Source: Candidatus Aegiribacteria sp.
Lineage (GTDB): Bacteria; Fermentibacterota; Fermentibacteria; Fermentibacterales; JCC-6
DNA: 64,000 nucleotides
Direction: 5' to 3'
Assembly: GCA_030600545.1 (NCBI GenBank)
Contig: JAUVLV010000003.1
Coordinates: 12,186 to 76,185 of the forward strand
Below, in pieces: positions 33,628 through 60,651 of this stretch. Below the pieces are notes generated by a model. That model searched no databases. It was not told the DNA's origin and worked only from the letters and a program-made list of their open reading frames with translations. The first letter of the stretch is position 1. Each line of letters opens with the position of its first letter. Made by a program: the position numbers and the translations under genes.

Positions 33628-33703
33628 TGGAGCGGGTAACGGGGATCGAACCCGCGACATTCAGCTTGGGAAGCTGACACTCTGCCAACTGAGTTATACC
33701 CGC
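33628..33703 (-). tRNA. tRNA-Gly (anticodon CCC)
   Basis: Folded by hand. Acceptor stem GCGGGTA/TACCCGC. D-arm ACTC-AGTTGGCA-GAGT. Anticodon stem TCAGC/GCTGA with loop TTCCCAA. Variable loop of 5 nt. T-arm GCGGG-TTCGATC-CCCGT. Discriminator U followed by an encoded CCA. It matches the bacterial tRNA-Gly consensus. Confidence 0.85.
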
Positions 33704-33729: not shown

Positions 33730-34563
33730 TCATAATGCTGCCGTCAAGCTTTCATTCAGGGGGTTTTCCAGAATGCCGGAGTATACTGTTCTTGCCTCAC
33801 CCTGAAGCCACCAGCCATGGCTGTCCTTTCCCACTTTGAGTGTTCTCCCGCTTCTTACGGTAATATTGACTGGAAGTTCCATTTCATGGATACTGACGGC
33901 ACAGATTGCCGAGGCTACCGCTCCGGTTCCGCAGGCAAGGGTTTCTCCCTCAACACCCCTTTCCCAGGTTCGCATTGAAAGTTTCGATTTACCGGTTATC
34001 CATGCGAAATCAACATTGGCACCCTCTTTTCCGAAGAGGATGTGCTTTCTGAGTTCAGGGGCTAATTCTGCAAAGGGGAGTTCTTCGGGTCCATCGAACA
34101 TGACAACAGCATGAGGGACACCTGTATTCAGAAATGACAATCGTAAACTGACAGAGTCTATATCAATGCTTCGATCGAAGTAGTGTACTTCCGGAGTAGT
34201 CATCCATAATCTGACACTGTCCTGTCCGGTTATTTCAGCTGAATGAATTCCTGCATCGCTTCTGAAATGGAAAATCCCTCTATCTGGCACGATGCCTGCT
34301 GAAGCTGCGTATCCAGCGATGCATCTTCCGCCGTTTCCACACATTTCAGCAGCTTTTCCATCATTGTTATAGAATTTCATGTGAAACGCGTATTCAGTAT
34401 CATCTTTAAGTTCCAGGAGACCATCGGCTCCTACGGATAAACCTCTTACGCACAGGCTTCGGATAAAGTCAGGGGTTATGATATCGTCAAGAGATGAATC
34501 CATGTTATCAAGAACTATGAAATCATTCCCTGCGCCACTCATTTTTACGAATTTCTGTTTCAT
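33730..34563 (-). CDS. dapF: Diaminopimelate epimerase
   Basis: MSGAGNDFIVLD, the CGNGGRC catalytic Cys region and a second Cys motif GTGAVAS are present. Confidence 0.85.
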   Translation of the reverse strand: MKQKFVKMSGAGNDFIVLDNMDSSLDDIITPDFIRSLCVRGLSVGADGLLELKDDTEYAFHMKFYNNDGKAAEMCGNGGRCIAGYAASAGIVPDRGIFHFRSDAGIHSAEITGQDSVRLWMTTPEVHYFDRSIDIDSVSLRLSFLNTGVPHAVVMFDGPEELPFAELAPELRKHILFGKEGANVDFAWITGKSKLSMRTWERGVEGETLACGTGAVASAICAVSIHEMELPVNITVRSGRTLKVGKDSHGWWLQGEARTVYSGILENPLNESLTAAL

Positions 34564-38746: not shown

Positions 38747-39285
38747 CAGCGAAGCTCCTCGATCTGTATGGTTCCACCTGTGTATATGCATATTCCAGAA
38801 GCTATTTTTAAGCTTTCTCGGACTATTCTTGCCGGTCCCATTCTCGTATGTGCATCCAGTGCACGTGCTGCTGCAATTGCGTAGGACTGCCCGGAGCCTA
38901 CCGAAACAATTCCATCTTCAGCCTCAACGATTTCTCCTGAACCTCCTATCAGCAGGGCATGTTCTCTGTCAACGGCGGCAATAAGAGCCTGAAGCTGTCT
39001 GAGGTACTTATCGGTTCTCCATTCTCGAGCCAGTTCCACTGCAGCCCTGGGAAGATTACCTCTGGCTGCTTCGAGTTTCTCTTCAAGTCTTTCAACAAGG
39101 GCAAACGCATCTGCGCCGGTACCCGAGAAACCCACAAGAACGGTATCGGAATATAGTTTTCTTATCTTTCTTGCTGTACTTTTGATTACTGTCTCACCAA
39201 GGGTTACCTGACCGTCGGCAGCCATCGCGGCCTTGCCGTTGCGTACTATCCCGAGTACAGTTGTTGCGTGAATATCTTCGATCAT
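38746..39285 (-). CDS. hslV: ATP-dependent protease subunit HslV
   Basis: TTVLGIVRNGKAAMAADGQVT has the catalytic N-terminal Thr after a short leader. GSG motifs are present. 179 aa. Confidence 0.85.
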   Translation of the reverse strand: MIEDIHATTVLGIVRNGKAAMAADGQVTLGETVIKSTARKIRKLYSDTVLVGFSGTGADAFALVERLEEKLEAARGNLPRAAVELAREWRTDKYLRQLQALIAAVDREHALLIGGSGEIVEAEDGIVSVGSGQSYAIAAARALDAHTRMGPARIVRESLKIASGICIYTGGTIQIEELR

Positions 39286-42200
39286 GATCCTCCATCAAGT
39301 GTATTAACCCAGGAATAACTTCCGGAGCCTCTGCCCGGTTCAGGTACGGATTCAGCATACGATGCGGGATCCAGAAGAATCCCGGACAGGATTGAACCTG
39401 ATACATGGCTGCTTCCGCAGAGGGCTGCATACATCAAGAAGTACCTTCCACCCCTGGCAGCCATCCATGCGAGGGCTTCCGGAGAGACCCTTTTACCTTC
39501 CGTAACATACCATTCCGACCATTCCCGGGATTCCTCAGAACCTTCATCCAGAAGTCTCAAGGCAAATCCCTCTATTGCTCCTGCTTCGGATTCATCGTCA
39601 ATATAATCGGACAGGACAAGTCCAGCGGATATGGATGACATGATATGCCCTCTGGAAGCCAGTTCTGCCATAGAGTCAATAATATCTCCGGCATTTGCGT
39701 CTTCGATAAGGTCAATTCTGTTTGAGGTGTCCTGACTGATGAATTCAAAGAATATTGACAGGCCGCTGTCACGGGGATTAACTCTTGCTCCTGTCCTTGA
39801 ATTCTCAAGAATTTCCTCGAGCGTACTCCGTGCAAGCGCAGCCAGTTCTACCGATTGAAGGTTATGCTGCACATCCATACTGTCGAGGATTCTCCAGGCT
39901 CCAATATAATCGGAAAACATCAGTGATACTTCGATCTTCATCCATGCAAATGGTATTGAACCCTCATCAGCGGTCATCCATTCAAATGAAACTGAACTGT
40001 CATCAATAATATTGAAAAGATTTCTGTACTCCATCTCCTGCCTGTATCCGAAAGTATTTTCCGAACCTATTGCCATGTTTAAAATTGAATAGGACAGCTG
40101 CAGGAGTTCCTGATTGCCAATTCTATTGGCAGCTTCCATCGCTTCGGCAGCAAGAATCTCGAGAGTATCCGCGGCAGCAGCAGGTCCGTAGAGACCATCG
40201 ATGAGCTTGCCAATTATCATCGCTCTTGAGGGCAGTATTTCTGCCCAGTCATCGGGCAGTGTCACAAAGAGCTGCTCCGCTCTATCAAGGGCCATCTGTA
40301 CGCTGTCCGGTTCTCCAGCCGCCATGTAATGATAAGCGAGCCTGTGATATGCCGAAACGTAATTCTTCAGGAGTTGTACAGCCTGGTCACATTTAAAAAT
40401 GGATGGATCTGTGACTCCTGTGAATCGATACTCGTTCATAAGCTGCCAGCCTTGAGAGCTGTTTACAGCATCTACAACGGGATGTTCAGTTATACAGAAT
40501 GCTATACCCTCCATTTCCTGGTAATGCTCGAGGAACTGCCGGCTTTCTGGAGCAACGGTGCCTGCGAAATATATTTCACGACCGTGAACAGGCCTGTTCT
40601 TGATCATATTCAGAAGAACGAGATCCTGCATCGTCAGCGCTCCCGTGTTGCCAAGGCACTCAGTAGGCATCGCCATGGCCATGCTGCCGTTGGTTATTGC
40701 CCAGGGCCATACCTGGTTAAAAGTTATTCGGAGAATATCTCCGTCAATCGATGATGATACAGCCTGGCCGTATCTATCAACATGGAAATAATGGGGACCC
40801 CATACGTAGATAGGATGCAGCGAATCAACGAGTCCATAGTCATCAAAATCAAGAAGAAGGGGATCCTTTTCCACAAGCTGCTGAACGTACCAGTTCGTGT
40901 TCATCAGGCTCAGATTGCTCACTATGACATCTCTGCGAACCCCCAGAACTCCCTGAGCGAACCAAAGGGGAAATGTGTCGTTGTCACCGTTGGTTATAAG
41001 AACGGCGTTCTCGGGGCAGCTTTCAAGAAGATTTATGCCGTAGTCTCGCGCGAAGGTGGAATCCGACCTGTCGCATCTGTAGAAATTGACCCCGAATGAT
41101 AATGCCGGTATCAGTAATGTTGCCCAGGCAAGCCTGGACTTGTCAGAAAGGAAATCCTTGAATACCGATACCAGTCCTATTCCCGAGAATATTGCAAAAA
41201 ATGCGAAGGATGCTCCAAAGAAGTAGTCCCTCTCCCTTACTTCTCCCAGATCTGTGCCCTCGATACCGGTTTTAAAATTGAGTATGAAGAAAATGAAGAG
41301 GATAGAAGACATCAGAAACAGTAAACCAAGATATAGAAGCAGTTTGGGCCTCTTTATTCCCAGCACTACCAGTCCGTAAATCGCTCCGAATATCAGTACT
41401 ATTCTTATGACCATGGATGCAGCGGAACCTGCCGTATCTCCCAGATAACGATCCCATCCGTCATCCACCCTGCCGGACTGCCAGGAAAGATATTTCATAT
41501 ATAGCTTTATCTGATCGATGAACGGACCCTTTCTTTCCAGGATCGATGTGCTGCCGTACTGCTCACGGGTGAAAGCCTTCTCAAAATCGGTCCAGTGGGA
41601 AGTGTCACGTTCGTTTATTTCCGGATTCTGCACAGCGCGAAGAGGCATATAGAGATGAATGCTGAAAGCCAGAACTACAAGGCCAACTATTGTAAGAACG
41701 AACCAGGACCGTTTCCATATATCCGTCTTTTTCCTGAAGGCGTAAATAAGGTACAGCAAAAGTATCGGGGGACCGGTAACGAATGGTACGCTGCCATGGT
41801 TTCCAACGGCAAGGATTATCAGGTAAGATATGAGAAGCAGATACCTTGCTTCTCCCCAGCCGCCATGATCCTTTTTTCCCTTTTCATGTTTTTTCTCTGC
41901 GTATCTCTCTATCCAGCAGTCGAACGACCACATGATAATAAATGTCAGCAGCAGTGCCGTGGCGTAAGTTTCCGTGGCATTGCTGTTGCGCCAGATAGTG
42001 TAGCTGAAGGCAGCAATAAACCCTGAAAGAACGGACATCGGTCTGTACCAGGCAGGCACGAAATCCATTCTGTTCCCCCATCGCTGAACGAGGCGGACAA
42101 GAAGGCTGACAGTGATTGCTCCGGCAAAAGCACATAGAAGATTAACCCGTGCCGCAACCGAGGGAATAAAAGAGAAAATGATAGTGCTGAATCTTCCAAG

Positions 42201-42395
42201 GAGTACGAAAAATGGAACACCCGGCGGGTGTGGAACTCCGGCAGTCCATGAGCAGGTAAGGTATTCTCCGCTGTCCCAGAAGCTTACACTGGGAGCCAGT
42301 GTAAGAAGATATGTGAAAAGTGCAGCCAGTCCTACTGTTAAGGCAATCGATCTGTCGATTCTGATTCTTCTTGTTTCTTCGTTACTATTAGTCAC
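39282..42395 (-). CDS. DUF2723/TMEM260-like giant membrane protein (GT-C-fold glycosyltransferase-like N-domain plus ~600-aa C-terminal region)
   Basis: The N-terminal motif LLTLAPSVSFWDSGEYLTCSWTAGVPHPPGVPF is characteristic of DUF2723. There are 10 or more TM helices, then a long soluble helical-repeat C-terminus. 1037 aa. Confidence 0.6.
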   Translation of the reverse strand: MTNSNEETRRIRIDRSIALTVGLAALFTYLLTLAPSVSFWDSGEYLTCSWTAGVPHPPGVPFFVLLGRFSTIIFSFIPSVAARVNLLCAFAGAITVSLLVRLVQRWGNRMDFVPAWYRPMSVLSGFIAAFSYTIWRNSNATETYATALLLTFIIMWSFDCWIERYAEKKHEKGKKDHGGWGEARYLLLISYLIILAVGNHGSVPFVTGPPILLLYLIYAFRKKTDIWKRSWFVLTIVGLVVLAFSIHLYMPLRAVQNPEINERDTSHWTDFEKAFTREQYGSTSILERKGPFIDQIKLYMKYLSWQSGRVDDGWDRYLGDTAGSAASMVIRIVLIFGAIYGLVVLGIKRPKLLLYLGLLFLMSSILFIFFILNFKTGIEGTDLGEVRERDYFFGASFAFFAIFSGIGLVSVFKDFLSDKSRLAWATLLIPALSFGVNFYRCDRSDSTFARDYGINLLESCPENAVLITNGDNDTFPLWFAQGVLGVRRDVIVSNLSLMNTNWYVQQLVEKDPLLLDFDDYGLVDSLHPIYVWGPHYFHVDRYGQAVSSSIDGDILRITFNQVWPWAITNGSMAMAMPTECLGNTGALTMQDLVLLNMIKNRPVHGREIYFAGTVAPESRQFLEHYQEMEGIAFCITEHPVVDAVNSSQGWQLMNEYRFTGVTDPSIFKCDQAVQLLKNYVSAYHRLAYHYMAAGEPDSVQMALDRAEQLFVTLPDDWAEILPSRAMIIGKLIDGLYGPAAAADTLEILAAEAMEAANRIGNQELLQLSYSILNMAIGSENTFGYRQEMEYRNLFNIIDDSSVSFEWMTADEGSIPFAWMKIEVSLMFSDYIGAWRILDSMDVQHNLQSVELAALARSTLEEILENSRTGARVNPRDSGLSIFFEFISQDTSNRIDLIEDANAGDIIDSMAELASRGHIMSSISAGLVLSDYIDDESEAGAIEGFALRLLDEGSEESREWSEWYVTEGKRVSPEALAWMAARGGRYFLMYAALCGSSHVSGSILSGILLDPASYAESVPEPGRGSGSYSWVNTLDGGS

Positions 42396-45543: not shown

Positions 45544-47022
45544 TCAGTTCAAATCTGTCATCCATTCGAATATTCTGCCAGTGATCAGTTCTGTAGTTTC
45601 AGGTATTATCGCCTGTTTTCTCTGCAGGAAGTATGGACTGCTGGATCCTGAAAGAATACTGAAACTGTCAGCAGTAAACGAAAATAAAGTTGCCTCGTAA
45701 TACTGGTTTTCTCTGTAGTACAGAACCATCTGGTCAACCATTGTCGAATCGAGAAGCATACCCAGATTCCCCAGAAGAGCCGTTCTTTTTTCAGCAGGTT
45801 CAGGATGCAGTATGGACATAAGAAGAATGTCGAAACCGTCATCAGTAGTAATCAGTGAAAAACCGTCGAACTCTATTGAATAAATCGCAGCAAGTTGACC
45901 CAGTGGCTCTGAAAGGAACTGCATGGAGTCGGTCTGTATTTCTATGCCAGGACCGGGTGATATTGTCAGTGTTCTTGGCAGTGAATATTCTTCGGGTGTT
46001 CCCAGTGAATCTGGTACCGAAACATCTCTCAGGGATATGTACCCATTAACCTCCAGAGAATCTACAGGAGCAACGGTTGTATCAGTTACTGCCACCGAAT
46101 CGGAAAGCAGCGAATCAGCTTCATGAATAACCACGGTATCGGCATATACGATTTCCGAACTTTCCAGTCTGTCATCTGATGAAAGGAAAAAATTCATCGG
46201 ATCAATAATAACGAAAGCTATTACCATAAGAATCAGAACGATTATGACAGCAGGCAATGGAGATATTTTTGAGAATATCCCTGATCTATTTATACTGGTT
46301 TTTCTTTTTGGATATGAACTTTTCGTCTCATCACGACTGCTTTCTTCGTGATTGCTTTTTCTGATCTCAGGTACCGAGTCAAGAGGCTTGTCAACCATTC
46401 TTCCCTCAGAGGCGCACTTCTCACATACGTGGTATTTCCTGTTGAAACACTCTGAACACGTAAGTTTTTCGCAAGTTCGACATGGAATAAGCTTCTGATC
46501 ACCGATTGGTGTTCTTCCACAGATGTGGCATCTTTCAACCGAGATCATCTCTTCTGCAGCGGATGTGATTATGAGAGAATCATCATCATCATCATCAAAA
46601 TGTTTATGAGTATAATCCTCATCTTTTACAGAGCTCTGATCATGATAGACATCACCGATATCTTCATTTTTCTTTTCCTCTATTGCGGGAATATCATCTG
46701 TAATCATTTCGTAGGGTGATTCTTCAGATTTGCTCTCTTCAACAGCGGGATTGGTCTTGTTGTTGCCGTAGTGTCTTGGGAGAAGGTCTACAAATGGGTA
46801 CATTCTGTCCTGGAGAATTCTGGCTTGCTCCATCTCAACACCCTCACTGAGAATGCTGGGAGAATTTTCAACGTTTTTACTGGCTTCTTCGCTTGACATT
46901 CCCAGTTCGCTCATGAGCAGTTCTTTTACCTTTTTCTTCTCTTCTTCCCTGGTAAGTCTGACAAGAAGAAGATCAACAAGCCTGCTTTGATCCAATTCAG
47001 CCTCGCTTTTCATCAAGAGCAA
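45544..47022 (-). CDS. Bitopic membrane protein with a cytoplasmic acidic region and a 4xCxxC zinc ribbon, and a ~210-aa periplasmic domain
   Basis: CHICG...CRTCEKLTCSEC...CEKC gives four CxxC pairs. Upstream is a poly-Asp tract (DDDDDD). One TM helix (AVIIVLILMVIAFVII). Its start overlaps the mglA-2 3' end by 26 nt. Confidence 0.5.
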   Translation of the reverse strand: MLLMKSEAELDQSRLVDLLLVRLTREEEKKKVKELLMSELGMSSEEASKNVENSPSILSEGVEMEQARILQDRMYPFVDLLPRHYGNNKTNPAVEESKSEESPYEMITDDIPAIEEKKNEDIGDVYHDQSSVKDEDYTHKHFDDDDDDSLIITSAAEEMISVERCHICGRTPIGDQKLIPCRTCEKLTCSECFNRKYHVCEKCASEGRMVDKPLDSVPEIRKSNHEESSRDETKSSYPKRKTSINRSGIFSKISPLPAVIIVLILMVIAFVIIDPMNFFLSSDDRLESSEIVYADTVVIHEADSLLSDSVAVTDTTVAPVDSLEVNGYISLRDVSVPDSLGTPEEYSLPRTLTISPGPGIEIQTDSMQFLSEPLGQLAAIYSIEFDGFSLITTDDGFDILLMSILHPEPAEKRTALLGNLGMLLDSTMVDQMVLYYRENQYYEATLFSFTADSFSILSGSSSPYFLQRKQAIIPETTELITGRIFEWMTDLN

Positions 47023-51785: not shown

Positions 51786-53564
51786 TTAATTTTCTCCATC
51801 GTTTCTTTCCCGATGTATCTCATCCAGTATGATCTCGGGATACCTGGATTTAACGTAATCAAAAACGAGATTTCTTATTTCATTTCCTGATTTCATTGTC
51901 AGAGCTTTTTTTGCGATAGTCTTAACTTCACTCATGCGGATAACACTGATCATCTCCTTAACATCGGGGATAAGTGTCAGAGGTACACTGAGTTCGTTCA
52001 GGCCGAATCCCACCAGCAGAGGAATGGCTAATGGATTATTAGCCATCTGTCCGCAGATGCCAACCCACTGTTCCACTTCCTTGCATTTTCTGGCGACGAT
52101 ATCGATCTGTCTGATAACTGCCGGATGCAGAGAATCAAAGAGTTTGGATACGTAGGGGCTGCCTCTGTCAACCGCAAGTGTGTACTGAGTAAGATCGTTC
52201 GAGCCAATCGATACGAAATCGGTATGGGGAAGCAGAAGATCGATACCGAGAACAGCTGCGGGAGTTTCAATCATAATACCAAGCGGTGGAATTTCTCCTC
52301 TGGGAATGCCTTCGCGATCAAGTTCAGCAGCAATATCCTCAAGCATGACCCTGACCTGCAGAATCTGGTCGTATCCCGTGATCATTGGAAGCATTATCCT
52401 ACCATTTCCGTGCCTTGCTGCCCTCAGAAGCGCTCTCAGTTGTCTTGTGAATTTTTCCGGACGGTCCAGGCAGATCCTGATGGCCCTCCACCCAAGGAAG
52501 GGATTTTTTTCTTTGGTCGGAATCGAATCCAGAAACTTGTCTCCCCCAAGATCGAGGGTTCTTATTATCACAGGATCAGGATTAAGAGTCTCAAGTACAT
52601 GTCTGTAAGCTCTGTAATGTATTTCTTCATCGTCTTCCGCCTCCGGGGTGAGAAGCATTATGAATTCCGTTCTGAAAAGACCTATTCCATTTCCTCCAAA
52701 ACGGCGTACCTGATCGGCTTCCAGCGAGAATTCAATATTCGCCGAAAGCTCTATATCTATTCCATCCGCGGTAACAGCAGGGTTTTCAGCATTCAGTGCT
52801 ATCTCGGCTTCAGCTATGTTGTAGCGTTCTTTCAGTTTGTAATAGTACTCAAGCTCATCGTCATTGGGATTCAGTATTACATTTCCATGGATTCCATCAA
52901 TAATTACAGTCTGTCCTGTAACCACATATTTCGCTACATCTTTGAGGGCGACAACGGCCGGGATCCCCATGCTCCTGGCCAGTATCGCGGTATGTGAGGT
53001 TGAACCGCCAAGATCTGTGACTATTCCAAGAAGCTGTTTTCTTGACAGCCCGGCTGTCTGTGACGGGTCAAGATCCCGTGATACAAGAACTACAGGATTA
53101 GTCAGATTCAACAGGGCTTCCTGCTCTGTACCCATCAGATTCGCCATTATTCTTTTACCGACATCCCTTATATCGATCGCCCTGCCTTTAATGTATGAAT
53201 CCTCTATCAGGCTAAAACGTTCAAGAACATCATAGAGAGCCCTGCTTACGGCATAATCGGCACTCACCTGTTCATTCCTTATCCGATTTTCAACGTCGGA
53301 AATCATGGATGGGTCGTTTAGAAGAAGAATTTGAACCTCGATGAGCTGTCTGCCCTCAATAATATCGCTGACCTGATCCGATATCTGCTCAAGTTCCATT
53401 CGCGTATGGGCAAGAGCTGCTCTGAATCGATCCAGCTCTGCTTCTACCTCTTCTTTATTCCTCAGGTTTCTCTTCTGTATTCTTATCTCTTCAATGTTCA
53501 ACAGAAATGCCGGTCCTATGGATACACCGGGAGATGCAGGAGTACCTTTAAGTCTAATGCTCAA
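51786..53564 (-). CDS. ptsI: Phosphoenolpyruvate-protein phosphotransferase (PTS enzyme I)
   Basis: The active-site His region GGSTSHTAILARSMGIPAVV and the PEP-utilizing C-terminal domain are present. 592 aa. Confidence 0.9.
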   Translation of the reverse strand: MSIRLKGTPASPGVSIGPAFLLNIEEIRIQKRNLRNKEEVEAELDRFRAALAHTRMELEQISDQVSDIIEGRQLIEVQILLLNDPSMISDVENRIRNEQVSADYAVSRALYDVLERFSLIEDSYIKGRAIDIRDVGKRIMANLMGTEQEALLNLTNPVVLVSRDLDPSQTAGLSRKQLLGIVTDLGGSTSHTAILARSMGIPAVVALKDVAKYVVTGQTVIIDGIHGNVILNPNDDELEYYYKLKERYNIAEAEIALNAENPAVTADGIDIELSANIEFSLEADQVRRFGGNGIGLFRTEFIMLLTPEAEDDEEIHYRAYRHVLETLNPDPVIIRTLDLGGDKFLDSIPTKEKNPFLGWRAIRICLDRPEKFTRQLRALLRAARHGNGRIMLPMITGYDQILQVRVMLEDIAAELDREGIPRGEIPPLGIMIETPAAVLGIDLLLPHTDFVSIGSNDLTQYTLAVDRGSPYVSKLFDSLHPAVIRQIDIVARKCKEVEQWVGICGQMANNPLAIPLLVGFGLNELSVPLTLIPDVKEMISVIRMSEVKTIAKKALTMKSGNEIRNLVFDYVKSRYPEIILDEIHRERNDGEN

Positions 53565-53569
53565 CTGTT

Positions 53570-53836
53570 CTATTCCTCTCCAAATCCGCCCCGGATGATA
53601 TCTACGATTGTTTTAGCAGCCTCGTTTTCATCATCACCTTCAGCTGTAACTTCAATTATACTCCCGCGGCATGCCGCAAGTGTCATAACGCCCATAATAC
53701 TTTTTGCATTAACTGAATCACCATCAACTGTCAGTGTAATGCTGCTTTCAAAAACAGATGCCGCCTTAACTATCTGAGCAGCTGGTCGAGCATGAATACC
53801 AAGCTTATTTACTACTTCAGCTTTTTCAGTTTTCAA
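53570..53836 (-). CDS. ptsH: Phosphocarrier protein HPr
   Basis: GIHARPAAQ (His15) and the Ser46 region KSIMGVMTL are present. 88 aa. Confidence 0.85.
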   Translation of the reverse strand: MKTEKAEVVNKLGIHARPAAQIVKAASVFESSITLTVDGDSVNAKSIMGVMTLAACRGSIIEVTAEGDDENEAAKTIVDIIRGGFGEE

Positions 53837-53852
53837 TGAAGTCCTCCAGCTC

Positions 53853-54824
53853 TTACTTTCTTCCTGATTTCAGCTCTTTGCTGATTATTCTCTTGATCAG
53901 GTCCTTTTCGACCTCCTCAGGAACATTTCTTCCCTTCTGAAGAAGAAGATAATTCATTACTGCGACCTCAAGAAGAAGTGTAAGATTACGGCCAGGCAGC
54001 ACAGGTATAATCGTTCTAGGAATCGGCAGATCAAGTATAGTGCTGATTTTTTGAATAAGGCCTGTTCTATCGAAATCCTGATTGTGCCTGGACCATTCCT
54101 CCAGTTTTACTTCAAGGTTGATCTGCTGTCTGTCCTTTACCGATCTGATTCCGTAGAATGCGGAGACATCCACAAGTCCAAGTCCTCTGATCTCCATATG
54201 ATGCGCCATTCCGGAATCTCCAATACCGAAGAGCGCATTACCAATTCTTCTTACATGTACTCTATCGTCCGCTATCAGCCTGTGTCCTCTTTCAAGAAGA
54301 CCCAGTACAGTCTCGCTTTTGCCGATCGCACTTCTTCCTGTACATAGAACTCCTGCGCCGAAAACTTCGACAAGACTTCCGTATACATTTGTTTCAGGGG
54401 CGAATACCATATCGAGGAAACTGCAAAGCCCACGTATCAGTGGAGTTGTGTCCATTGTAGAACGAAAAAGAGCTGAGGAACTGGATTTAGAAAGTTTGAC
54501 AAGTTCATCAGGGGGATCGAGACCCTTCGTTACAATAGAACAGTATACCGGTAATTCAAAAAGCGATTCCAGTGAATCCTTTCTACGTTCTGCAGAAAGT
54601 GAATCAAGGTAGGATATCTCCGTCTCACCGAAGATCTGTACCCTTTCGTACAGGAATTTATGAAGGTACCCGGTCAGAGCCATGCCCGGCCGACTGATAT
54701 CCTGGGATTCTATAAGTCTTTCGTGACCTGTATTCCCGTTAACTGTTTCCAGCTCAAGGCTTTTACTGAGTATTCTGAAAAGCTCAGCAGTCGTGAGCTC
54801 CTCCCTGCCAGGAATGTATTCCAT
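53853..54824 (-). CDS. hprK: HPr kinase/phosphorylase
   Basis: Walker A GRSAIGKSETVLGLLERGHRLIADD and the C-terminal HprK signature are present. Confidence 0.85.
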   Translation of the reverse strand: MEYIPGREELTTAELFRILSKSLELETVNGNTGHERLIESQDISRPGMALTGYLHKFLYERVQIFGETEISYLDSLSAERRKDSLESLFELPVYCSIVTKGLDPPDELVKLSKSSSSALFRSTMDTTPLIRGLCSFLDMVFAPETNVYGSLVEVFGAGVLCTGRSAIGKSETVLGLLERGHRLIADDRVHVRRIGNALFGIGDSGMAHHMEIRGLGLVDVSAFYGIRSVKDRQQINLEVKLEEWSRHNQDFDRTGLIQKISTILDLPIPRTIIPVLPGRNLTLLLEVAVMNYLLLQKGRNVPEEVEKDLIKRIISKELKSGRK

Positions 54825-54838
54825 CAGGATTTTCTCCG

Positions 54839-55387
54839 TTATTTCTGGTTTCTCACCAGTTCAACGACCTGTGTCTTGCCGTCCGGGGTTGTATATACAA
54901 CACTGAGCATGCCTGTTTCCGTGTTCTGGAAAACAAAATGCTCGTCCTGGTCAATCTCGTAATTCATTATGGCGTCTTTAGTATTCAGCCTCGGCATTAT
55001 TTCTGAATCATCTATGAGAATTCCATCAGCAAACTCAGATTCCTCTGCGGGAACGTAATATGTTAAAGAACTGTCGTCTGAACCGTTATTTTCCCGGTGG
55101 GGATGATTGTGCATTCTGTCTTTGAATTTCCGAACTTGTGTTTCAAGCGAATGAAATGCCTCGTCAAATGCGGAATAGATATCATGAGATTTTGATTTGG
55201 AATCCAGTTTTATATGATTTCCTCTAACCTGTATATGAACGTGATTGGTTCCAGAGGTTACTTCAAGTATCACACGCACGTCATCTATGCCATCATAGAA
55301 TCTATCTACGGTTTTAAGTTTCTTCTCAACATGCTTCTTAAGAGCATCTGTCAATTGAAAGTGTCTTCCACTGATTTCAATGTTCAT
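54839..55387 (-). CDS. hpf: Ribosome hibernation promoting factor (long form)
   Basis: MNIEISGRHFQLTDALKKHVEKKL matches the RaiA/HPF N-terminal domain, and the C-terminal dimerisation domain is present. An AAGGGAG ribosome-binding site lies 6 nt upstream. Confidence 0.85.
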   Translation of the reverse strand: MNIEISGRHFQLTDALKKHVEKKLKTVDRFYDGIDDVRVILEVTSGTNHVHIQVRGNHIKLDSKSKSHDIYSAFDEAFHSLETQVRKFKDRMHNHPHRENNGSDDSSLTYYVPAEESEFADGILIDDSEIMPRLNTKDAIMNYEIDQDEHFVFQNTETGMLSVVYTTPDGKTQVVELVRNQK

Positions 55388-55585: not shown

Positions 55586-56812
55586 TTATCGCTTATGACT
55601 TCTGATGAATTCCTCTACTTCAGGAATACCGCCCTGCAATATCAAATAACCGTTATGGGGTTCTCTTTCCGTGATCTCACCAGCTATCGGAGTAAGCATT
55701 ATCTTTTTAACCTCTTCCCTGTCATGGCTCTGACCAAGTGCCCAGCATAATTTCATGTATGCAACTTCCGGAAGCATATTGGAAGCTGGAATTACACCAA
55801 GATCCATGATATCCCGCCCTGTATCGTATACGAACATCTGTACATATCCCCACAGGGTTTGAACCGTCATGTAAACATGTACTCCCTGATCGCAGGCTTT
55901 CTTAAGGACAGGATAGAGAGGCTTGTTCACATGTCCAAGCCCCGTTCCCGCGATTATGATACCCTTGTAACCGTTATCAATAAGCGATTCAATAATATCA
56001 GGTTTCATATCAGGATAGTAATACACTATTGAAACACTTGAATCGAAAGCAGTATTGATTTTCACATGACGGTCTGTCCGTCTTTTCCTGTAATCGGTTT
56101 TCAATGGTGTTATATGTCCTTTTTCAACCATAGCCAGGGGTATGTCTCCTATTGTGCGGAATGTGGACCTGTAGGAGGAATGCATCTTCCTGACTCTTGT
56201 TCCTCTGTGCAGAAGTCCATACTGATCACTTGTAGGACCGAACATACAGACCATTACCTCTGCAATATCGCTCTCAGCGGCTGCATAGGTGGCATTCATC
56301 AGATTTATTGCCGCATCGCTTGAAGGGCGGTCACTGGATCGTTGTGATCCGACCATTACTACAGGAACAGGTGTATCCTGAACCATGAACGAAAGAACAG
56401 CTGCTGTATGATGCATCGTATCGGTCCCATGGCCAATGACTATTCCATCTACACCATCGGCTATTGCCCTGCCGATTGCCTCCGCTGTTCCTTTCCATTG
56501 TTCAGGCCCCATGTTTTCACTGAAAACTCCGTAGAGCTTCTCCGTTTTAAGGTTGCAGATATCCGCCAGTTCGGGTACCGATCCATAGAGCTCACCAGGG
56601 GAAAATGCGGGAATGACAGCGCCCGTTCTGTAATCAAGCCTCGAGGCAATGGTGCCCCCTGTTCCGAAAAGTCTCACATTCGGTTTTGATGGATCGTACG
56701 GAAATTCCTTTTCAGGGATCTTGTAATGGGCTTCGTTCCTTCCCAGCTCAGCGATGGACTCAATAGTTCCAACATCCAGGCCTACATTGTAGCCGTTATG
56801 GATTTTCAACAC
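55586..56812 (-). CDS. gatD: Glutamyl-tRNA(Gln) amidotransferase subunit D (archaeal-type; asparaginase-fold with ~90-aa N-terminal extension)
   Basis: Asparaginase motifs FGTGGTIAS and GHGTDTM are present. The 408-aa length includes the GatD-specific N-terminal domain. It is immediately downstream of a gatE-like gene. Confidence 0.75.
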   Translation of the reverse strand: MLKIHNGYNVGLDVGTIESIAELGRNEAHYKIPEKEFPYDPSKPNVRLFGTGGTIASRLDYRTGAVIPAFSPGELYGSVPELADICNLKTEKLYGVFSENMGPEQWKGTAEAIGRAIADGVDGIVIGHGTDTMHHTAAVLSFMVQDTPVPVVMVGSQRSSDRPSSDAAINLMNATYAAAESDIAEVMVCMFGPTSDQYGLLHRGTRVRKMHSSYRSTFRTIGDIPLAMVEKGHITPLKTDYRKRRTDRHVKINTAFDSSVSIVYYYPDMKPDIIESLIDNGYKGIIIAGTGLGHVNKPLYPVLKKACDQGVHVYMTVQTLWGYVQMFVYDTGRDIMDLGVIPASNMLPEVAYMKLCWALGQSHDREEVKKIMLTPIAGEITEREPHNGYLILQGGIPEVEEFIRSHKR

Positions 56813-56977
56813 TATATGCGTATCGTCAGCGGTTTCCGACCGGGGAAGAATTACTCCGCTGAAACCGCCTCTGGTCGATTCAATATTAACATCGGACCAT
56901 ACGCCAACATTGTATTTCTTCAGACATTCCAGGCTTTTACCCCTGTATCCTTTGTATAGATCGGAGGACAGCTTTGA

Positions 56978-58906
56978 TCACCTCCTCTGTATTTGCCGTG
57001 ACGAGGAATCAGCAAATTCGGTAAAAATTGTGTTTCTCACTACTTCCAGCACTTCTCTGCCGCCCGGCATCCCCTTGAACCTGTCCTTTATGCGCCCTAT
57101 GAGAAAGCGTTCCATAAGACCGGTGTCGAAAGGATCAAGTATTTCCATTATTCTGACGGCCGTGTCTTCTATATCTTTTCTGTCGGGTATCGTTAAATCA
57201 GTTATAACCGATTCGATTTCCGCATTCCCGTTTCCGCAGGTTTTCTCCAGAATATAGGCTGCGGCTTCAACGGGAAGATTGCGCCTGCTGGCCGCTGACA
57301 GTACTTCGATAAGTGTTTCATCAGGGATCTCACTTACATTGCCGCTGTTCTTCAGATGGTTTAGTGTGCTAAGAAAAAAATGCATGAGAATGCGTGGAGA
57401 GTACAGGCATTTCTTCACAGCCTCATCGTATACGAATCTCATGTAAGAAATACTCATCTGACGGGCAGATTCTGCAGGTACTCCCACAGTTATATATCTC
57501 TCCATCCGTTCCCAGGGTCTTTCGGGAAGGTCCGATTCGATACGTTCGATCATTTTTTCGGTTATGGCTATTGGCTGCAGGTCGGTATCAGGATACATCC
57601 TGTTTGGTCCGGGCAGAATTCTTTCGAATCCGTTTGTTCCATCAGAATATGATTGTCTTGTTTCACTGCAGACGCCGTAGATAGCTTCCCTTGCTCTTGT
57701 TGCGATTTCACCCGTCGCCATATCGAGGTCTTCTACCGATCCCCATACGACAACGACGGCATCACCCGTTTCAGCACCAGTTTTCTTTTTTACTGTCTCC
57801 CATTCGCTAACCGAGAAACTGTATCCTTCCTCTCCATCGTTTACGATATTGGGAAGGGTATCAAGACATGCAATAACGCGGACTCTGTCGGAGATCTCCC
57901 CGGCGAAAGTACAGCCGGGCTGTGTAACTGTAGAAAGCAATCCTACGTATCCCCGCAGTAGAACAGCTCTAAGCTCAAAGCCCTTCTTCAGAGCGGCTGC
58001 AGCAGGGCTGTAGACAGTTCCTGAGAGTTCATCGGTAACATCAAAACATTCGGAACTGAACGTTGAATCCGTAATACCCCTTCTGGACAGTTCTTTTTTG
58101 ATCTCCAGAAGAAACACCTGGCGGAAAGCCTCGTTGTGAACAAGCAGCGGTATCGCTGGAATCCTTGAAACACCCTTAATCTCAACGCGGCATCCCCCCG
58201 TTACAGAAACGTTCACATCCTGCCTTGCGGCGCCAATTCCACGTCTTACTTTACCAGAAGCTCTAACAAGATCGCTTAGTATCCGGGCAACCTCAGCCAC
58301 ATCGCGTGGAGTAGTCATTTCCGGAGCCGTTACAGTCTCAATAAGCGGTATTCCAAGCCTGTCCGTCAGGTAGACGCGTTCATGGCCTGTATCGCTTACT
58401 TCCCGGCAGGCATCTTCTTCCAGTCCAAGCTGAATAATATTTATACGCCTGTTTTTAAATGGGATCCAGCCGTCAACTCCCAGTATTGTCGTTCTCTGAA
58501 AACCTGCAGGTATTGATCCATCGAGGTACTGCTTCCTCTGAATATGAATCTCACTAACGAGTTTGCAGTTAAGAAGCATCGTTATCTCAAGTGCGATATC
58601 AAGAGCCTGTGGATTCAATTCGAAGGGAGGAGTATCATCGATTTCGTAAGTACAAATGGTATCTTTGTTTATCTGGTATGTGATGTTCTTTTTAGTTTTG
58701 AACTCCATAAGAGCTGTGCCGTCGTATTCACCGAGTTCTGAAAGAGTAGGTCTCATATGACGAAGTATCTGTGCATCGTATTCGTCAGAGTAAGGAAGTA
58801 CCGGGCAGCGACAGAACAATTTTTTCCTGGTATCGATCTGCTGGTGTATCTCAAGTCCGCTGCGCAGTCCGATAGCTTCGTAATCGGAGGTTGTCATCTC
58901 CTCCAT
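56978..58906 (-). CDS. gatE: Glutamyl-tRNA(Gln) amidotransferase subunit E (archaeal-type)
   Basis: YEAIGLRSGLEIHQQIDTRKKLFCRC, RPTLSELG, ICTYEIDDTPPFELNPQALDIA, DRLGIPLIETVTAP and RQDVNVSVTGGCRVEIKGV match GatE (GatB-like catalytic core plus insertion). The ~640-aa size fits GatE, not the ~480-aa bacterial GatB. Confidence 0.75.
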   Translation of the reverse strand: MEEMTTSDYEAIGLRSGLEIHQQIDTRKKLFCRCPVLPYSDEYDAQILRHMRPTLSELGEYDGTALMEFKTKKNITYQINKDTICTYEIDDTPPFELNPQALDIALEITMLLNCKLVSEIHIQRKQYLDGSIPAGFQRTTILGVDGWIPFKNRRINIIQLGLEEDACREVSDTGHERVYLTDRLGIPLIETVTAPEMTTPRDVAEVARILSDLVRASGKVRRGIGAARQDVNVSVTGGCRVEIKGVSRIPAIPLLVHNEAFRQVFLLEIKKELSRRGITDSTFSSECFDVTDELSGTVYSPAAAALKKGFELRAVLLRGYVGLLSTVTQPGCTFAGEISDRVRVIACLDTLPNIVNDGEEGYSFSVSEWETVKKKTGAETGDAVVVVWGSVEDLDMATGEIATRAREAIYGVCSETRQSYSDGTNGFERILPGPNRMYPDTDLQPIAITEKMIERIESDLPERPWERMERYITVGVPAESARQMSISYMRFVYDEAVKKCLYSPRILMHFFLSTLNHLKNSGNVSEIPDETLIEVLSAASRRNLPVEAAAYILEKTCGNGNAEIESVITDLTIPDRKDIEDTAVRIMEILDPFDTGLMERFLIGRIKDRFKGMPGGREVLEVVRNTIFTEFADSSSRQIQRR

Positions 58907-59184
58907 TCTTTTTATCAAGTTGAGACAACTCTCCTTCCAGTATACTTTATTCATACTCAGTTTCCAGAGATTCATTGAGTATAAAGTGAGATCAGATTTC
59001 GCAAGAACAGCGTTTAATTATATTTCATGGGATTCCACAAAACAACGGTTACTGCCTGGCCGCCTCCACGAGAATCCGTCTGACCGACTTGTTACCGCAT
59101 CGGGTGATACTGCCGCGCATCAGATAATCAGAAAAATCCCTTTTATCCGCTGTTAGGCGAAGGTGAAACATTGTTACCTTACTT

Positions 59185-59877
59185 CTATTTCATCAGGATC
59201 AGTTTCTTTGTTGCCCGATAATTACCTATGTTCAGTCGATAGAAGTAAATACCTGAATTAATTTCTTTCGAATTCCAGACAACTTCATAATCACCAGCAA
59301 CCTTGTAATCATTAACAAGAGTTTCAACCAATTGACCACTTATGTTATAAATTTGTATTTCCACATTACATGTTCTAGATATAGAATAACTGATTGTAGT
59401 TGCCGAGCTGAATGGGTTTGGATAATTTTGATATAATCTAAAAGAATTTGTTGTAACATCAGAATAATCCTCTTCAATTCCGGTCATGTGTTCAAAGTAA
59501 AAAGCTCCCATATCAGCAACTGTGCTATCAGGGTCAAGGGAAGAAGCAGGATCACCTGCATCTATACAAGGCGATTTTGTGCTATCAGGTACTGGGAAAT
59601 TAGCCCAAGTTAGATAAAAATCACCGATTACAGGATCTACAAATAGTGGATCTTCATCAATACAACCTGTACCGAACCAAGGCTGGCCTGTTCCTCCTTC
59701 TATATCTGAATAGCTGGCTGTCAATGTTTGAGCCCCTGAATATGCTATAGTTGGAGGGGTATCATGCCAGAGGATATCATTAAACACATTTGCCTGAGCT
59801 CCGCTCTGGTCAAAATAGAAGTAGATTCCTCCGCCTTCAGAAGCTGAATTGCTATAGAATGTATTGTTAAATATATT
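59185..59877 (-). CDS. C-terminal part of a secreted protein carrying a T9SS C-terminal sorting domain (same frame as the upstream beta-helix ORF)
   Basis: The last ~80 aa (YPNPFSSATTISYSISRTCNVEIQIYNISGQLVETL...GIYFYRL) match the Por secretion C-terminal domain. Confidence 0.6.
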   Translation of the reverse strand, partial: NIFNNTFYSNSASEGGGIYFYFDQSGAQANVFNDILWHDTPPTIAYSGAQTLTASYSDIEGGTGQPWFGTGCIDEDPLFVDPVIGDFYLTWANFPVPDSTKSPCIDAGDPASSLDPDSTVADMGAFYFEHMTGIEEDYSDVTTNSFRLYQNYPNPFSSATTISYSISRTCNVEIQIYNISGQLVETLVNDYKVAGDYEVVWNSKEINSGIYFYRLNIGNYRATKKLILMK

Positions 59878-60651
59878 TTAATTTCCTGTTGTAGTTGATA
59901 TACATAATCCGCCTCCAGATTCAGCAGAGGATTCGTTTTCATTAAAAACATTATGGTCTATTGTTGCAGTTCCATTATCAAGAAATATATTTGCACCACC
60001 TCCAGTTTGGACTGAAGTATTTATAGTAAATCTATTGTTCTGAATATTCAGTGTACCTCCGCCATGTTCTATCCACAAACCTCCTCCTTGCCATACTGAG
60101 CTATTCCCAATATAAGTATTATCCAATAAATCTATCGTGCCCGATGTAATTTGTATGTAGGTTCCTCCTCCACTACCAGCCACTACTGATGAATTCCCTG
60201 TTAAAGTGTTGTGTCTGTACTCTACTATAGCATTACCAGCAGGGCACCTGATCCAGCAACCACCTCCAAATTCATCTGCTATATTATCGTTGAAAGTACT
60301 GTTTTCAACTACAACGGTAGAACCATCGCCCATTGGATAGAGCATTGCTCCTGCACCATCCCTTTCTGCTGTATTTTCAATAAAAGTACATTCTATAACT
60401 CTTATCTCGGTCCCTGCTCCTTCTGTCTGGACAAACAAGCCTCCTGCAGTACCATAAGGGTACCCCGATGAATTTGGGGATGAATTTCTTCTGAACATAC
60501 AGTTATTAATTGTGATATTTCCTGTTATTGAATATATGTTTACACCACCACAAACATAACCTGCTGTGTTGTCATCAATGGTACAGTTATTAAGACTTAT
60601 ATCCGCATCTTGTGTCTCTATATATAATCCTCTCTCCATAGTCTGCTTCAA
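59878..60651 (-). CDS. Right-handed parallel beta-helix repeat protein (N-terminal part, ends at an in-frame TAA)
   Basis: Repeated ~22-aa N-x-x-x-N/GGG motifs (NNCTIDDN, NITINNCMF, VIECTFIENTA, VVENSTFNDN, IQNNRFTINTS). There is no signal peptide at the annotated start, so the gene is probably 5'-truncated or frameshifted upstream. Confidence 0.5.
   Translation of the reverse strand: MKQTMERGLYIETQDADISLNNCTIDDNTAGYVCGGVNIYSITGNITINNCMFRRNSSPNSSGYPYGTAGGLFVQTEGAGTEIRVIECTFIENTAERDGAGAMLYPMGDGSTVVVENSTFNDNIADEFGGGCWIRCPAGNAIVEYRHNTLTGNSSVVAGSGGGTYIQITSGTIDLLDNTYIGNSSVWQGGGLWIEHGGGTLNIQNNRFTINTSVQTGGGANIFLDNGTATIDHNVFNENESSAESGGGLCISTTTGN

Follow-up and report, generated by a model that had tools for sequence, protein, structure and literature searches.

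An archaeal-type GatDE amidotransferase in a bacterial lineage, with diverged tRNA-reading domains and a putative CTG start for gatD

Whether an amidotransferase reserved for archaea in the literature can belong to the translation machinery of a bacterium is the question raised by two adjacent genes, gatE and gatD, located in a 64,000-nucleotide stretch of DNA (the window in what follows) from contig JAUVLV010000003.1 of a genome deposited as Candidatus Aegiribacteria sp. (assembly GCA_030600545.1). GatDE has been called an "archaeal signature protein", occurring "exclusively in archaea" or "now only found in archaea", in papers of 2008 (PMC2330236), 2009 (PMC2811023), 2021 (PMC8007984) and 2022 (PMC9499178). 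According to the evidence gathered here, the window probably encodes a working and native GatDE-type amidotransferase, which belongs to a monophyletic bacterial branch most likely issued from one ancient transfer, has diverged tRNA-reading domains and includes a GatD most likely started at a CTG codon. The features on which this reading is built are the following:

56978..58906, minus strand: gatE, kinase/transamidase subunit of GatDE, 642 amino acids from the ATG at 58906
55586..56971, minus strand: gatD, asparaginase-type glutaminase subunit, 461 amino acids from the proposed CTG start
55586..56812, minus strand: gatD as called mechanically, 408 amino acids, GTG start
56753..56893, minus strand: region encoding the GatD_N domain (PF18195), residues 27-73 of the 461-residue protein
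56969..56985, minus strand: gatE/gatD junction, with the Shine-Dalgarno sequence GGAGGTGATC (56976-56985), the gatE TGA (56978-56980) and the CTG (56969-56971)

The reading frame of gatE is open up to 58975 (open reading frame 56978-58975), and the relatives back the MEEMT start at 58906, from which the protein reads MEEMTTSDY and onwards. Compared with the profile models of NCBIfam, GatE reaches over its full length 517.1 bits with NF003107 (cut-off 456) and 465.6 bits with TIGR00134 (cut-off 319.55), and GatD reaches 494.8 bits with TIGR02153 (cut-off 324) and 494.5 bits with NF003217 (cut-off 310). Tried as a GatB, the window GatE was rejected, all six GatB models giving 72-148 bits for cut-offs of 315-680 and the highest-scoring of them 148.2 bits for a cut-off of 338. 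Tried as an ordinary asparaginase, the window GatD remained below the cut-offs of the type II subfamily model and of both named L-asparaginase equivalogs. With 399.5 bits for a cut-off of 260.5 it also passes TIGR00519, the broad subfamily model of type I asparaginases, as is normal for a relative in fold, and both asparaginase domains of Pfam are present in the protein. Among PDB entries, the two proteins are closest to 1zq1 and 2d6f, chains of archaeal GatDE, which align end to end with E-values of 1e-94 to 1e-114, and both GatB chains and ordinary asparaginases rank far below them. A preliminary description of the window had recognized the pair from the motifs GLEIHQQ, RPTLSELG, DRLGIPLIETVTAP and RQDVNVSVTGGCRVEIKGV for GatE, and TGGTIAS and GHGTDTM for GatD; all of them occur in the translations, and the models assign the pair to GatE and GatD instead of GatB and an ordinary asparaginase. 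The span 55586-56812 then given for gatD corresponds to a genuine reading frame with too short a 5' end, which most likely extends to 56971.

The residues required for catalysis are conserved in both subunits. GatD is known as an asparaginase-type glutaminase that relies on a nucleophilic Thr and on a Thr-Lys-Asp triad, and it associates with GatE in an alpha2-beta2 complex in which a tunnel of 40 A joins both active sites (PMC2330236). In the window GatD, residues T54, T130, D131 and K209 of the 408-residue frame, i.e., T107, T183, D184 and K262 in the numbering of the 461-residue protein, align with T102, T178, D179 and the lysine of the VRK motif of Pyrococcus abyssi GatD; the nucleophilic Thr of TGGT, the Thr-Asp pair of HGTDT and the Lys of VRKMH are thus found in alignment with both the P. 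abyssi and the Methanothermobacter thermautotrophicus proteins. In M. thermautotrophicus GatE, His15, Glu157 and Glu184 hold an Mg2+ ion essential for the kinase and transamidase activities (PMC2330236). Their counterparts in the window GatE are H21, E163 and E190, which are invariant across 62 bacterial and archaeal GatE sequences, as are E19, E164, R228, D230, N232, S234, E242 and K244.

The PF02934 profile, which has 277 positions, covers residues 40-477 of the window GatE and hence reveals an insertion of about 160 residues. The AlphaFold2 model of this protein is confident over its whole length (mean predicted local distance difference test score, pLDDT, of 93.1; predicted template-modelling score, pTM, of 0.89), and the top Foldseek matches of the model are 1zq1_C and 2d6f_D, with target-normalised template-modelling (TM) scores of 0.84 and 0.80, respectively. 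GatB chains match less well (target-normalised TM 0.59-0.79), and weak matches to aspartyl-tRNA synthetase (AspRS) are consistent with an AspRS-like insertion domain. The profile and PDB alignments extend to the C-terminus, the tail motif included, and the comparison of the tail fold with the model is limited to the parts resolved in the solved GatE chains. Owing to the conserved catalytic residues and to the match between the predicted fold and archaeal GatE, the pair is very likely an active tRNA-dependent amidotransferase. By homology, a GatD dimer would hydrolyse glutamine (or asparagine) and free ammonia, which would move via the internal tunnel to GatE; using ATP and Mg2+, GatE would phosphorylate the side-chain carboxyl of the glutamate carried by Glu-tRNA(Gln), and would then amidate the activated glutamate to give Gln-tRNA(Gln).

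The pair is not confined to a single genome. Among GatE homologues, the nearest ones (57-94% identity) lie on metagenomic contigs and already bear the GatE annotation of NCBI; those with a name are labelled Candidatus Aegiribacteria/Fermentibacteria, Krumholzibacteriota, Bacteroidales and "bacterium". Scanning the genome collection with one protein returned no relatives, and it was an alignment-based scan, using two motifs conserved in the bacterial GatDE proteins and one genome per species of the GTDB, that found them: GatDE relatives occur, as confirmed loci, in at least 581 species-level genomes. The best 80 of these loci, four of which are on records titled as whole chromosomes, all bear bacterial titles, namely Fermentibacteria/Aegiribacteria, Krumholzibacteriota, Ignavibacteria/Melioribacteraceae/Kapabacteria, Bacteroidota, Rhodothermaceae, Chlorobiota, Calditrichota, Cloacimonetes, Neomarinimicrobiota and Aminicenantes, together with less reliable automatic labels. 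GatDE is therefore a trait of whole lineages and not of one genome. Wherever both genes were located, gatD directly follows gatE (65/65 loci). Two GatE-like representatives, P0157 (943 residues) and P0190 (781 residues), are far longer than usual and may possess extra domains or result from mis-joined calls.

The surroundings of the pair are equally conserved. The block gatE-gatD-hpf-hprK-ptsH-ptsI recurs in independent Fermentibacterota assemblies, with GatE identities of 65-94%, the order behind gatD being kept in L001-L004, and three independent relatives from different samples share the succession of a sigma-54 regulator, gatE, gatD, hpf, hprK, ptsH and ptsI, with genes for sugar-nucleotide enzymes and glycosyltransferases after it. 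L001, which is the closest contig, has the portion from gatE to ptsH in common with them and ends there. With synteny so conserved and a bacterial clade spanning many phyla, any transfer from archaea to bacteria must be ancient and was probably single. As regards the preliminary description, which left the choice between a horizontal acquisition and a lineage with an unusual aminoacylation toolkit, the unusual lineage is preferred to an acquisition by this particular genome.

An exhaustive search of GatE representatives clustered at 50% identity reveals a step-like drop of the scores: identity to the window GatE is 41-63% in one group and 38% at most in everything beyond it. The names recoverable in the low-identity group are all archaeal (Heimdall-, Thor- and Odinarchaeota, Thermoprotei, Ignisphaera, Methanofastidiosum, Parvarchaeota, Diapherotrites), and the separate clade to which the window GatE belongs displays 32-41% identity to archaeal GatE. 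In an unrooted neighbour-joining tree (122 GatE sequences, 612 columns, 200 bootstraps), the bacterial clade, joined by the representative P0149, is split from archaeal GatE in 199/200 replicates, and the window GatE falls within it. A second tree was rooted with three GatB fragments taken from PDB alignments, which reduced the comparison to 276 shared columns; the bacterial clade is monophyletic in 165/200 replicates, and in the best tree it lies inside the archaeal sequences, beside Thor, Odin and Heimdall. These results favour one ancient transfer from archaea to bacteria, followed by vertical inheritance and perhaps by further spread among bacteria, the direction and the age of the event being inferred.

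Several observations weigh against the reading proposed at the outset, in one or another of its parts. The sister relation of the bacterial clade to Asgard sequences is weak (25/200 replicates in the rooted tree, 122/200 in the unrooted one), and both phylogenies were obtained by neighbour-joining only, from 276 and 612 columns, respectively. The C-terminal tail of GatE shows an identity of 0.19 within bacteria vs 0.31 within archaea, and the Pfam tail domain is undetected in the window GatE and in the representatives P0101 and P0066. A genuine gene for glutaminyl-tRNA synthetase (GlnRS), glnS, adjoins gatDE in relatives from Ignavibacteriae and Bacteroidota. A scan of the 64 kb with motifs and tblastn found no tRNA(Gln), glutamyl-tRNA synthetase (GluRS), GlnRS, GatCAB or asparaginyl-tRNA synthetase (AsnRS); the word "transamidosome" used in the preliminary description would imply a GluRS partner. 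Finally, CTG initiation is rare in bacteria, and in the present case it is conservation alone that speaks for it.

The tail leads directly to the question of which tRNA is read. Between the bacterial and archaeal clades, identity amounts to 42-44% in the catalytic cradle of GatE and falls to 25% in the insertion domain and to 19% in the C-terminal tail. The 2006 co-crystal paper reportedly presents the tail and the insertion as the specific tRNA-reading elements. In Pfam searches, the GatB_Yqey tail is clear (70-91 bits) in the Heimdall, Thor and Thermoprotei GatE, two of the three also having the GAD insertion above threshold; GAD is undetected in the window GatE and in P0101, and gives a sub-threshold match in P0066. 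With a tail both undetectable by Pfam and poorly conserved, the substrate specificity may differ from that of archaeal GatDE. In archaeal GatDE, tRNA recognition resides in GatE and involves A1-U72, as first base pair, and the D-loop (PMC2330236, PMC9499178), a YqeY-type extension aids tRNA binding in a related enzyme, and bacterial tRNA(Gln) and tRNA(Asn) both possess U1-A72, a determinant for bacterial GatCAB (PMC2330236). Since archaeal GatDE reads A1-U72 and bacterial tRNA(Gln) normally has U1-A72, it is reasonable to infer that recognition has been re-tuned to the bacterial pair.

Neither the window nor any of the 84 related loci that were scanned contains a tRNA(Gln) gene, and these 84 loci have one tRNA gene in all:

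L024 5741-5817, plus strand: tRNA-Glu(CUC), 184 nucleotides upstream of gatE

This tRNA displays a D-loop resembling that of tRNA(Glu) but enlarged, and a U1-A72 first pair, which in model bacteria marks tRNA(Gln) and tRNA(Asn), not tRNA(Glu).

Genes related to glutamine metabolism or to the direct formation of Gln-tRNA(Gln) stand next to gatDE in some lineages:

L034 9282-10964, minus strand: glnS, convergent after gatD, in a Bacteroidetes metagenome-assembled genome (MAG), on a contig of 1.02 Mb
L078 656-2497, minus strand: glnS, divergent before gatE
L088 7001-8686, plus strand: glnS, again in convergent arrangement, in an Ignavibacteriae MAG
L087 8558-9967, plus strand: glnA, type I glutamine synthetase (486 bits), directly upstream of gatE

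The glnS products of L034 and L078 reach 716 and 743 bits with TIGR00440 (cut-off 426), and the matches listed for the L034 GlnRS protein are from Bacteroidota and Ignavibacteriae, at 79% identity or more. One of the loci where glnS adjoins gatDE comes from a MAG labelled Myxococcota, and the glnA-gatE pair lies on CP070727.1, a 4.1-Mb NCBI record labelled only "bacterium". Over about 1.04 Mb of scanned DNA, a search with GatB, GatA, GluRS and AsnRS motifs and with GatB tblastn yielded nothing but two glnS genes; the tblastn matches to GatB, all below 40% identity and presumably the gatE genes themselves, were discarded. According to a 2014 survey, Bacteroidetes have GlnRS without GatCAB, and Ignavibacterium album has GlnRS (PMC3927822).

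Because glnS adjoins gatDE in these lineages, GatDE need be neither the sole nor the principal way to Gln-tRNA, and a replacement of GatCAB or GlnRS by GatDE cannot be assumed. The direct and the GatDE routes thus coexist in at least part of the bacterial clade and may be linked, and GatDE could there provide redundancy, rescue mischarged Glu-tRNA(Gln) or act with a changed specificity. A fuller proposal, put forward tentatively, is that the bacterial clade goes back to one Asgard-related or stem-archaeal acquisition, that its tail and insertion were re-tuned to bacterial tRNAs bearing U1-A72, and that the enzyme works with a bacterial GluRS, in some lineages alongside GlnRS and genetically linked to it, possibly with a specificity widened to Asp-tRNA(Asn) or in a conditional or rescue role.

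A rival reading, that the job itself has changed or widened, so that bacterial GatDE amidates Asp-tRNA(Asn), alone or in addition, or serves as a back-up rescuing the Glu-tRNA(Gln) made by a non-discriminating GluRS, seems unlikely. It would agree with the position of glnS in L034, L078 and L088, with the GlnRS content reported by the survey, with bacterial sequences in which GatB_Yqey is missing and GAD at most sub-threshold when the tail is clear in all three archaeal GatE tested, with the lower identity of the bacterial tails, and with the U1-A72 pair that tRNA(Gln) and tRNA(Asn) have in common and that GatCAB uses (PMC2330236). However, the catalytic cradle shows high conservation, and equivalogs trained on Glu-tRNA(Gln) enzymes are passed by both proteins; the predicted fold retains the AspRS-like insertion, for which modelling suggests a clash with AspRS (PMC2330236); the proximity of glnS or glnA fits a glutamine-related role equally well; and the glnS neighbours come from lineages other than Fermentibacterota.

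The second matter to be weighed is the start of gatD. The GTG at 56812 taken by the gene callers corresponds to residue 49 of the archaeal GatD proteins, and the frame remains open for 55 codons further upstream, up to the in-frame TGA of gatE, these codons being translated as SKLSSDLYKGYRGKSLECLKKYNVGVWSDVNIESTRGGFSGVILPRSETADDTHI. The upstream residues are conserved as protein in every bacterial phylum sampled, and the region encoding GatD_N, whose translation (...GVWSDVNIESTRGGFSGVILPRSETADDTHIVLKIHNGYN) resembles the relatives across phyla, lies mostly upstream of the GTG: PF18195 gives 44.8 bits (cut-off 25.7) with the 461-residue GatD and is lost from the 408-residue frame. Owing to this conservation and to the GatD_N score, the 53 upstream codons are considered as translated. 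In most bacterial lineages, gatD has an ATG located 5-7 codons ahead of the conserved KGY motif, but between the gatE TGA and codon 54 of the window gatD there is no in-frame ATG, GTG or TTG.

Instead of a canonical start, the Fermentibacterota possess a characteristic junction. The sequence GGAGGTGATC, in which the gatE TGA of the window is embedded, followed by 4-5 further bases and a CTG, is common to the Fermentibacterota loci of the window, L001, L002, L005, L006, L007, L009 and L010, and one Krumholzibacteriota locus likewise carries it. The arrangement of Shine-Dalgarno, spacer and CTG is kept in 11/12 Fermentibacterota/Krumholzibacteriota junctions (window, L001-L007, L009-L011), L008 having a GTG at that codon; L003 and L004 have, besides the CTG, an ATG two codons before it. 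In the junctions compared, the CTG codon is invariant while the adjacent Leu codon varies. The 10-mer GGAGGTGATC, exactly complementary to the 3' end of 16S rRNA, occurs a single time in the window, at this junction, and a Shine-Dalgarno core is found at the usual distance in about 40% of the window genes. The most likely start of gatD is therefore, as far as conservation indicates, the CTG at 56969-56971, whose translation would be tightly coupled to the termination of gatE via the perfect 10-nucleotide Shine-Dalgarno that overlaps the stop codon, the CTG coming 9 nucleotides after it. As a result of this non-canonical start, gene callers cut 53 residues and the N-terminal domain off GatD, which they reduce to about 408 residues.

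That gatD does without the CTG is also unlikely: either the TGA of gatE would be read through to give a GatE-GatD fusion, or translation would begin at the GTG at 56812 and leave out the N-terminal domain. Both ideas draw on the lack of a canonical start codon upstream of 56812 in the window, and read-through draws in addition on the single reading frame that gatE and gatD occupy, with one TGA between them, in the window, L001, L002 and L005. However, gatE terminates sooner in three loci, L006 (a TAG in a different frame), L007 and L009 (a stop in the shared frame), and the junction of Shine-Dalgarno, TGA and CTG is kept in all of them, so that read-through is not a general solution. TGA is moreover the commonest ordinary stop of the window (29/51 genes), and none of the 65 loci has a fused GatE-GatD frame. 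Apparent fusions in L059, L078, L081 and L084 were set aside, gatE being in another frame and the open frames being artefacts of high GC content. A start at the GTG is opposed by the conservation of the 53 upstream codons across phyla and their score as GatD_N, and both ideas are opposed by a CTG that is invariant next to a varying Leu codon and replaced by GTG in L008. Initiation at the CTG thus remains preferred.

As to the origin of the clade, the earliest branch on the bacterial side of the GatE tree, P0149, deserves attention:

L085 10001-13310, plus strand: P0149/P0270 gat locus, on a bacterial contig with Mur ligases, MraZ/RsmH and Lnt

The Pfam hits of P0149 are weak, the YqeY tail lying just above the threshold and the GAD insertion just below, and the persistence of these weak hits to an archaeal-type tail and insertion makes P0149 an intermediate form. 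Sheppard and Soll, as summarized in PMC9499178, proposed that LUCA (the last universal common ancestor) had both GatDE and GatCAB, and bacterial GatDE could then be a vertical relic of that ancestor, lost from most bacteria. A monophyletic clade that is deep, at 35-41% identity to archaeal GatE, and distributed over many phyla, whose first branch is on a bacterial contig and still shows archaeal-type traits, would suit this improbable scenario. On the other hand, a root placed between the two domains, with monophyletic archaea, appears in only 5-8/200 replicates of the GatB-rooted analysis, and the best tree nests the bacteria by Asgard sequences. The titles of the best 80 loci belong mostly to lineages of the FCB (Fibrobacteres-Chlorobi-Bacteroidetes) group and to Aminicenantes, with a few other, partly automatic labels, and a vertical origin would consequently require very many independent losses. 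An ancient transfer is accordingly the origin we favour.

The contig itself is that of a bacterium, probably a member of the Fermentibacterota (Aegiribacteria group). Directly downstream of gatD, a co-oriented block (51786..55387) contains four genes above the NCBIfam cut-offs:

54839-55387, minus strand: hpf (76 bits)
53853-54824, minus strand: hprK (318 bits)
53570-53836, minus strand: ptsH, encoding HPr (101 bits)
51786-53564, minus strand: ptsI (539 bits)

Elsewhere in the window, PolA (928 bits), the bacterial topoisomerase topA_bact (668 bits, the archaeal topoisomerase model failing), LpxB (236 bits), LpxK (205 bits) and a type IX secretion system (T9SS) sorting domain (50 bits) are also above cut-off. 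The bacterial neighbours listed in the preliminary description are thus recovered with the exception of kdtA, its candidate being a KdtA-like transferase that remains under all five KdtA model cut-offs. The same description placed the pair exactly where rpoN and lptB normally precede hpf-hprK; this finds no support, neither gene being among those examined, and the relatives have instead a sigma-54-dependent response regulator and a kinase upstream. Such a sigma-54-dependent response regulator is also encoded in the window.

In their composition, the gat genes are typical of their surroundings. Their GC contents (0.462 and 0.472 vs a window mean of 0.461 +/- 0.027), GC contents at third codon positions (GC3; 0.446 and 0.454 vs 0.433 +/- 0.057) and synonymous-codon distances (0.062 and 0.046 vs a mean of 0.091, among the lowest of the 51 window genes) all fall within the distribution of the window; the tetranucleotide correlation shows no dip across 54-60 kb, and there is no break at 55.5 or 59 kb that involves them. 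The idea that the gat genes are an archaeal fragment assembled or binned with a bacterial contig, or a very recent acquisition by one genome, had in its favour only the restriction of GatDE to archaea expected from papers as late as 2022, and is already refuted by the identical gene order in independent assemblies from different samples, the native GC, GC3, codon usage and tetranucleotide profile, the exclusively bacterial nearest homologues, and the occurrence of the genes both on the 4.1-Mb NCBI record and on records whose titles announce a whole bacterial chromosome.

The sole compositional outlier of the window is a low-GC stretch at 59-61 kb, where two genes (59185-60651, minus strand; GC 0.38-0.39, GC3 0.25-0.26) encode secreted proteins, one of them with a T9SS sorting tail. 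They sit between the sigma-54 response regulator and gatE, are missing from L002 and L003, and look like a lineage-specific insertion. Four large open reading frames (39282-42395, 34560-36767, 5947-7638 and 45544-47022; 492-1037 amino acids) have no NCBIfam match at E<=1e-10, and the 492-residue one (45544-47022) has none at 1e-5 either. The single tRNA gene of the window is a tRNA-Gly(CCC) (33628-33703, minus strand), and an Rfam scan of 54.8-59.3 kb detected no RNA family.

The claim that GatDE occurs in archaea only, which concerns distribution and is not a molecular criterion, is outdated: the contig of the window is bacterial, and at least 80 related loci bear bacterial titles. Literature searches returned no paper describing a bacterial GatDE, a weak negative, "GatE" being swamped by the English word "gate", and amidotransferases are unmentioned in the genome paper on Fermentibacteria (Hyd24-12). 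The family, its chemistry and the public GatE annotation were already known; what differs is the distinct bacterial clade, with its diverged tRNA-reading domains, the partnership with glnS or glnA and, in this lineage, the probable non-canonical start. New among these are the divergence of the tRNA-reading tail and insertion, the adjacency to glnS and the start of gatD. The result is genuine and would surprise a specialist moderately, without being categorically new.

Its consequences are of several kinds. The archaea-only pattern has been used in reviews to argue for a co-evolution of archaeal tRNA(Gln) and GatDE, by which the failure of archaea to gain a GlnRS is then explained; a bacterial clade present in hundreds of species indicates that GatDE can operate in a bacterial translation system, and makes testable which tRNA features are read, whether GatCAB has been replaced and why glnS is adjacent. 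In a more practical respect, the NCBIfam names gatE_arch and gatD_arch are misleading when these genes are used to flag archaeal sequence in bins, bacteria having them as well, and the gatD genes of Fermentibacterota are systematically truncated by gene callers owing to their non-canonical start. Should the re-tuning be real, the clade would represent a natural experiment in the co-evolution of an amidotransferase and tRNA identity after the crossing of a domain boundary, and would be relevant to the idea of a LUCA equipped with both amidotransferases.

With respect to known systems, the window proteins can be compared to three groups of enzymes. The type I L-asparaginases, such as those of Pyrococcus and Escherichia coli (AnsA), share with the window GatD the fold, the Thr and Thr-Asp-Lys residues and the TIGR00519 model, but GatD scores higher on the GatD equivalogs, possesses GatD_N, follows gatE and fails the named L-asparaginase equivalogs. 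Bacterial GatCAB performs the same chemistry in bacterial indirect aminoacylation, and GatB has the cradle domain in common with GatE; in contrast, the glutaminase of the window is an asparaginase-fold GatD and not the amidase-signature GatA, there is no GatC, the GatB equivalogs fail, and the window GatE contains an insertion domain of which GatB is devoid. From archaeal GatDE (2D6F from M. thermautotrophicus with tRNA(Gln), 1ZQ1 from P. abyssi), the window pair differs by its bacterial host and separate clade, by a GatE tail without Pfam hit and a bacterial GAD that is sub-threshold or absent, both regions evolving fast, by the bacterial GluRS and tRNA(Gln) expected as partners (U1-A72 in model bacteria vs A1-U72), and by the proximity of glnS to some bacterial gatDE, when no archaeon encodes GlnRS (PMC9499178). 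It resembles archaeal GatDE in the following: two genes, a GatB-paralogous kinase/transamidase with a predicted AspRS-like insertion, an asparaginase-type glutaminase with a GatD_N extension, full-length alignments, conserved catalytic residues and the best fold match.

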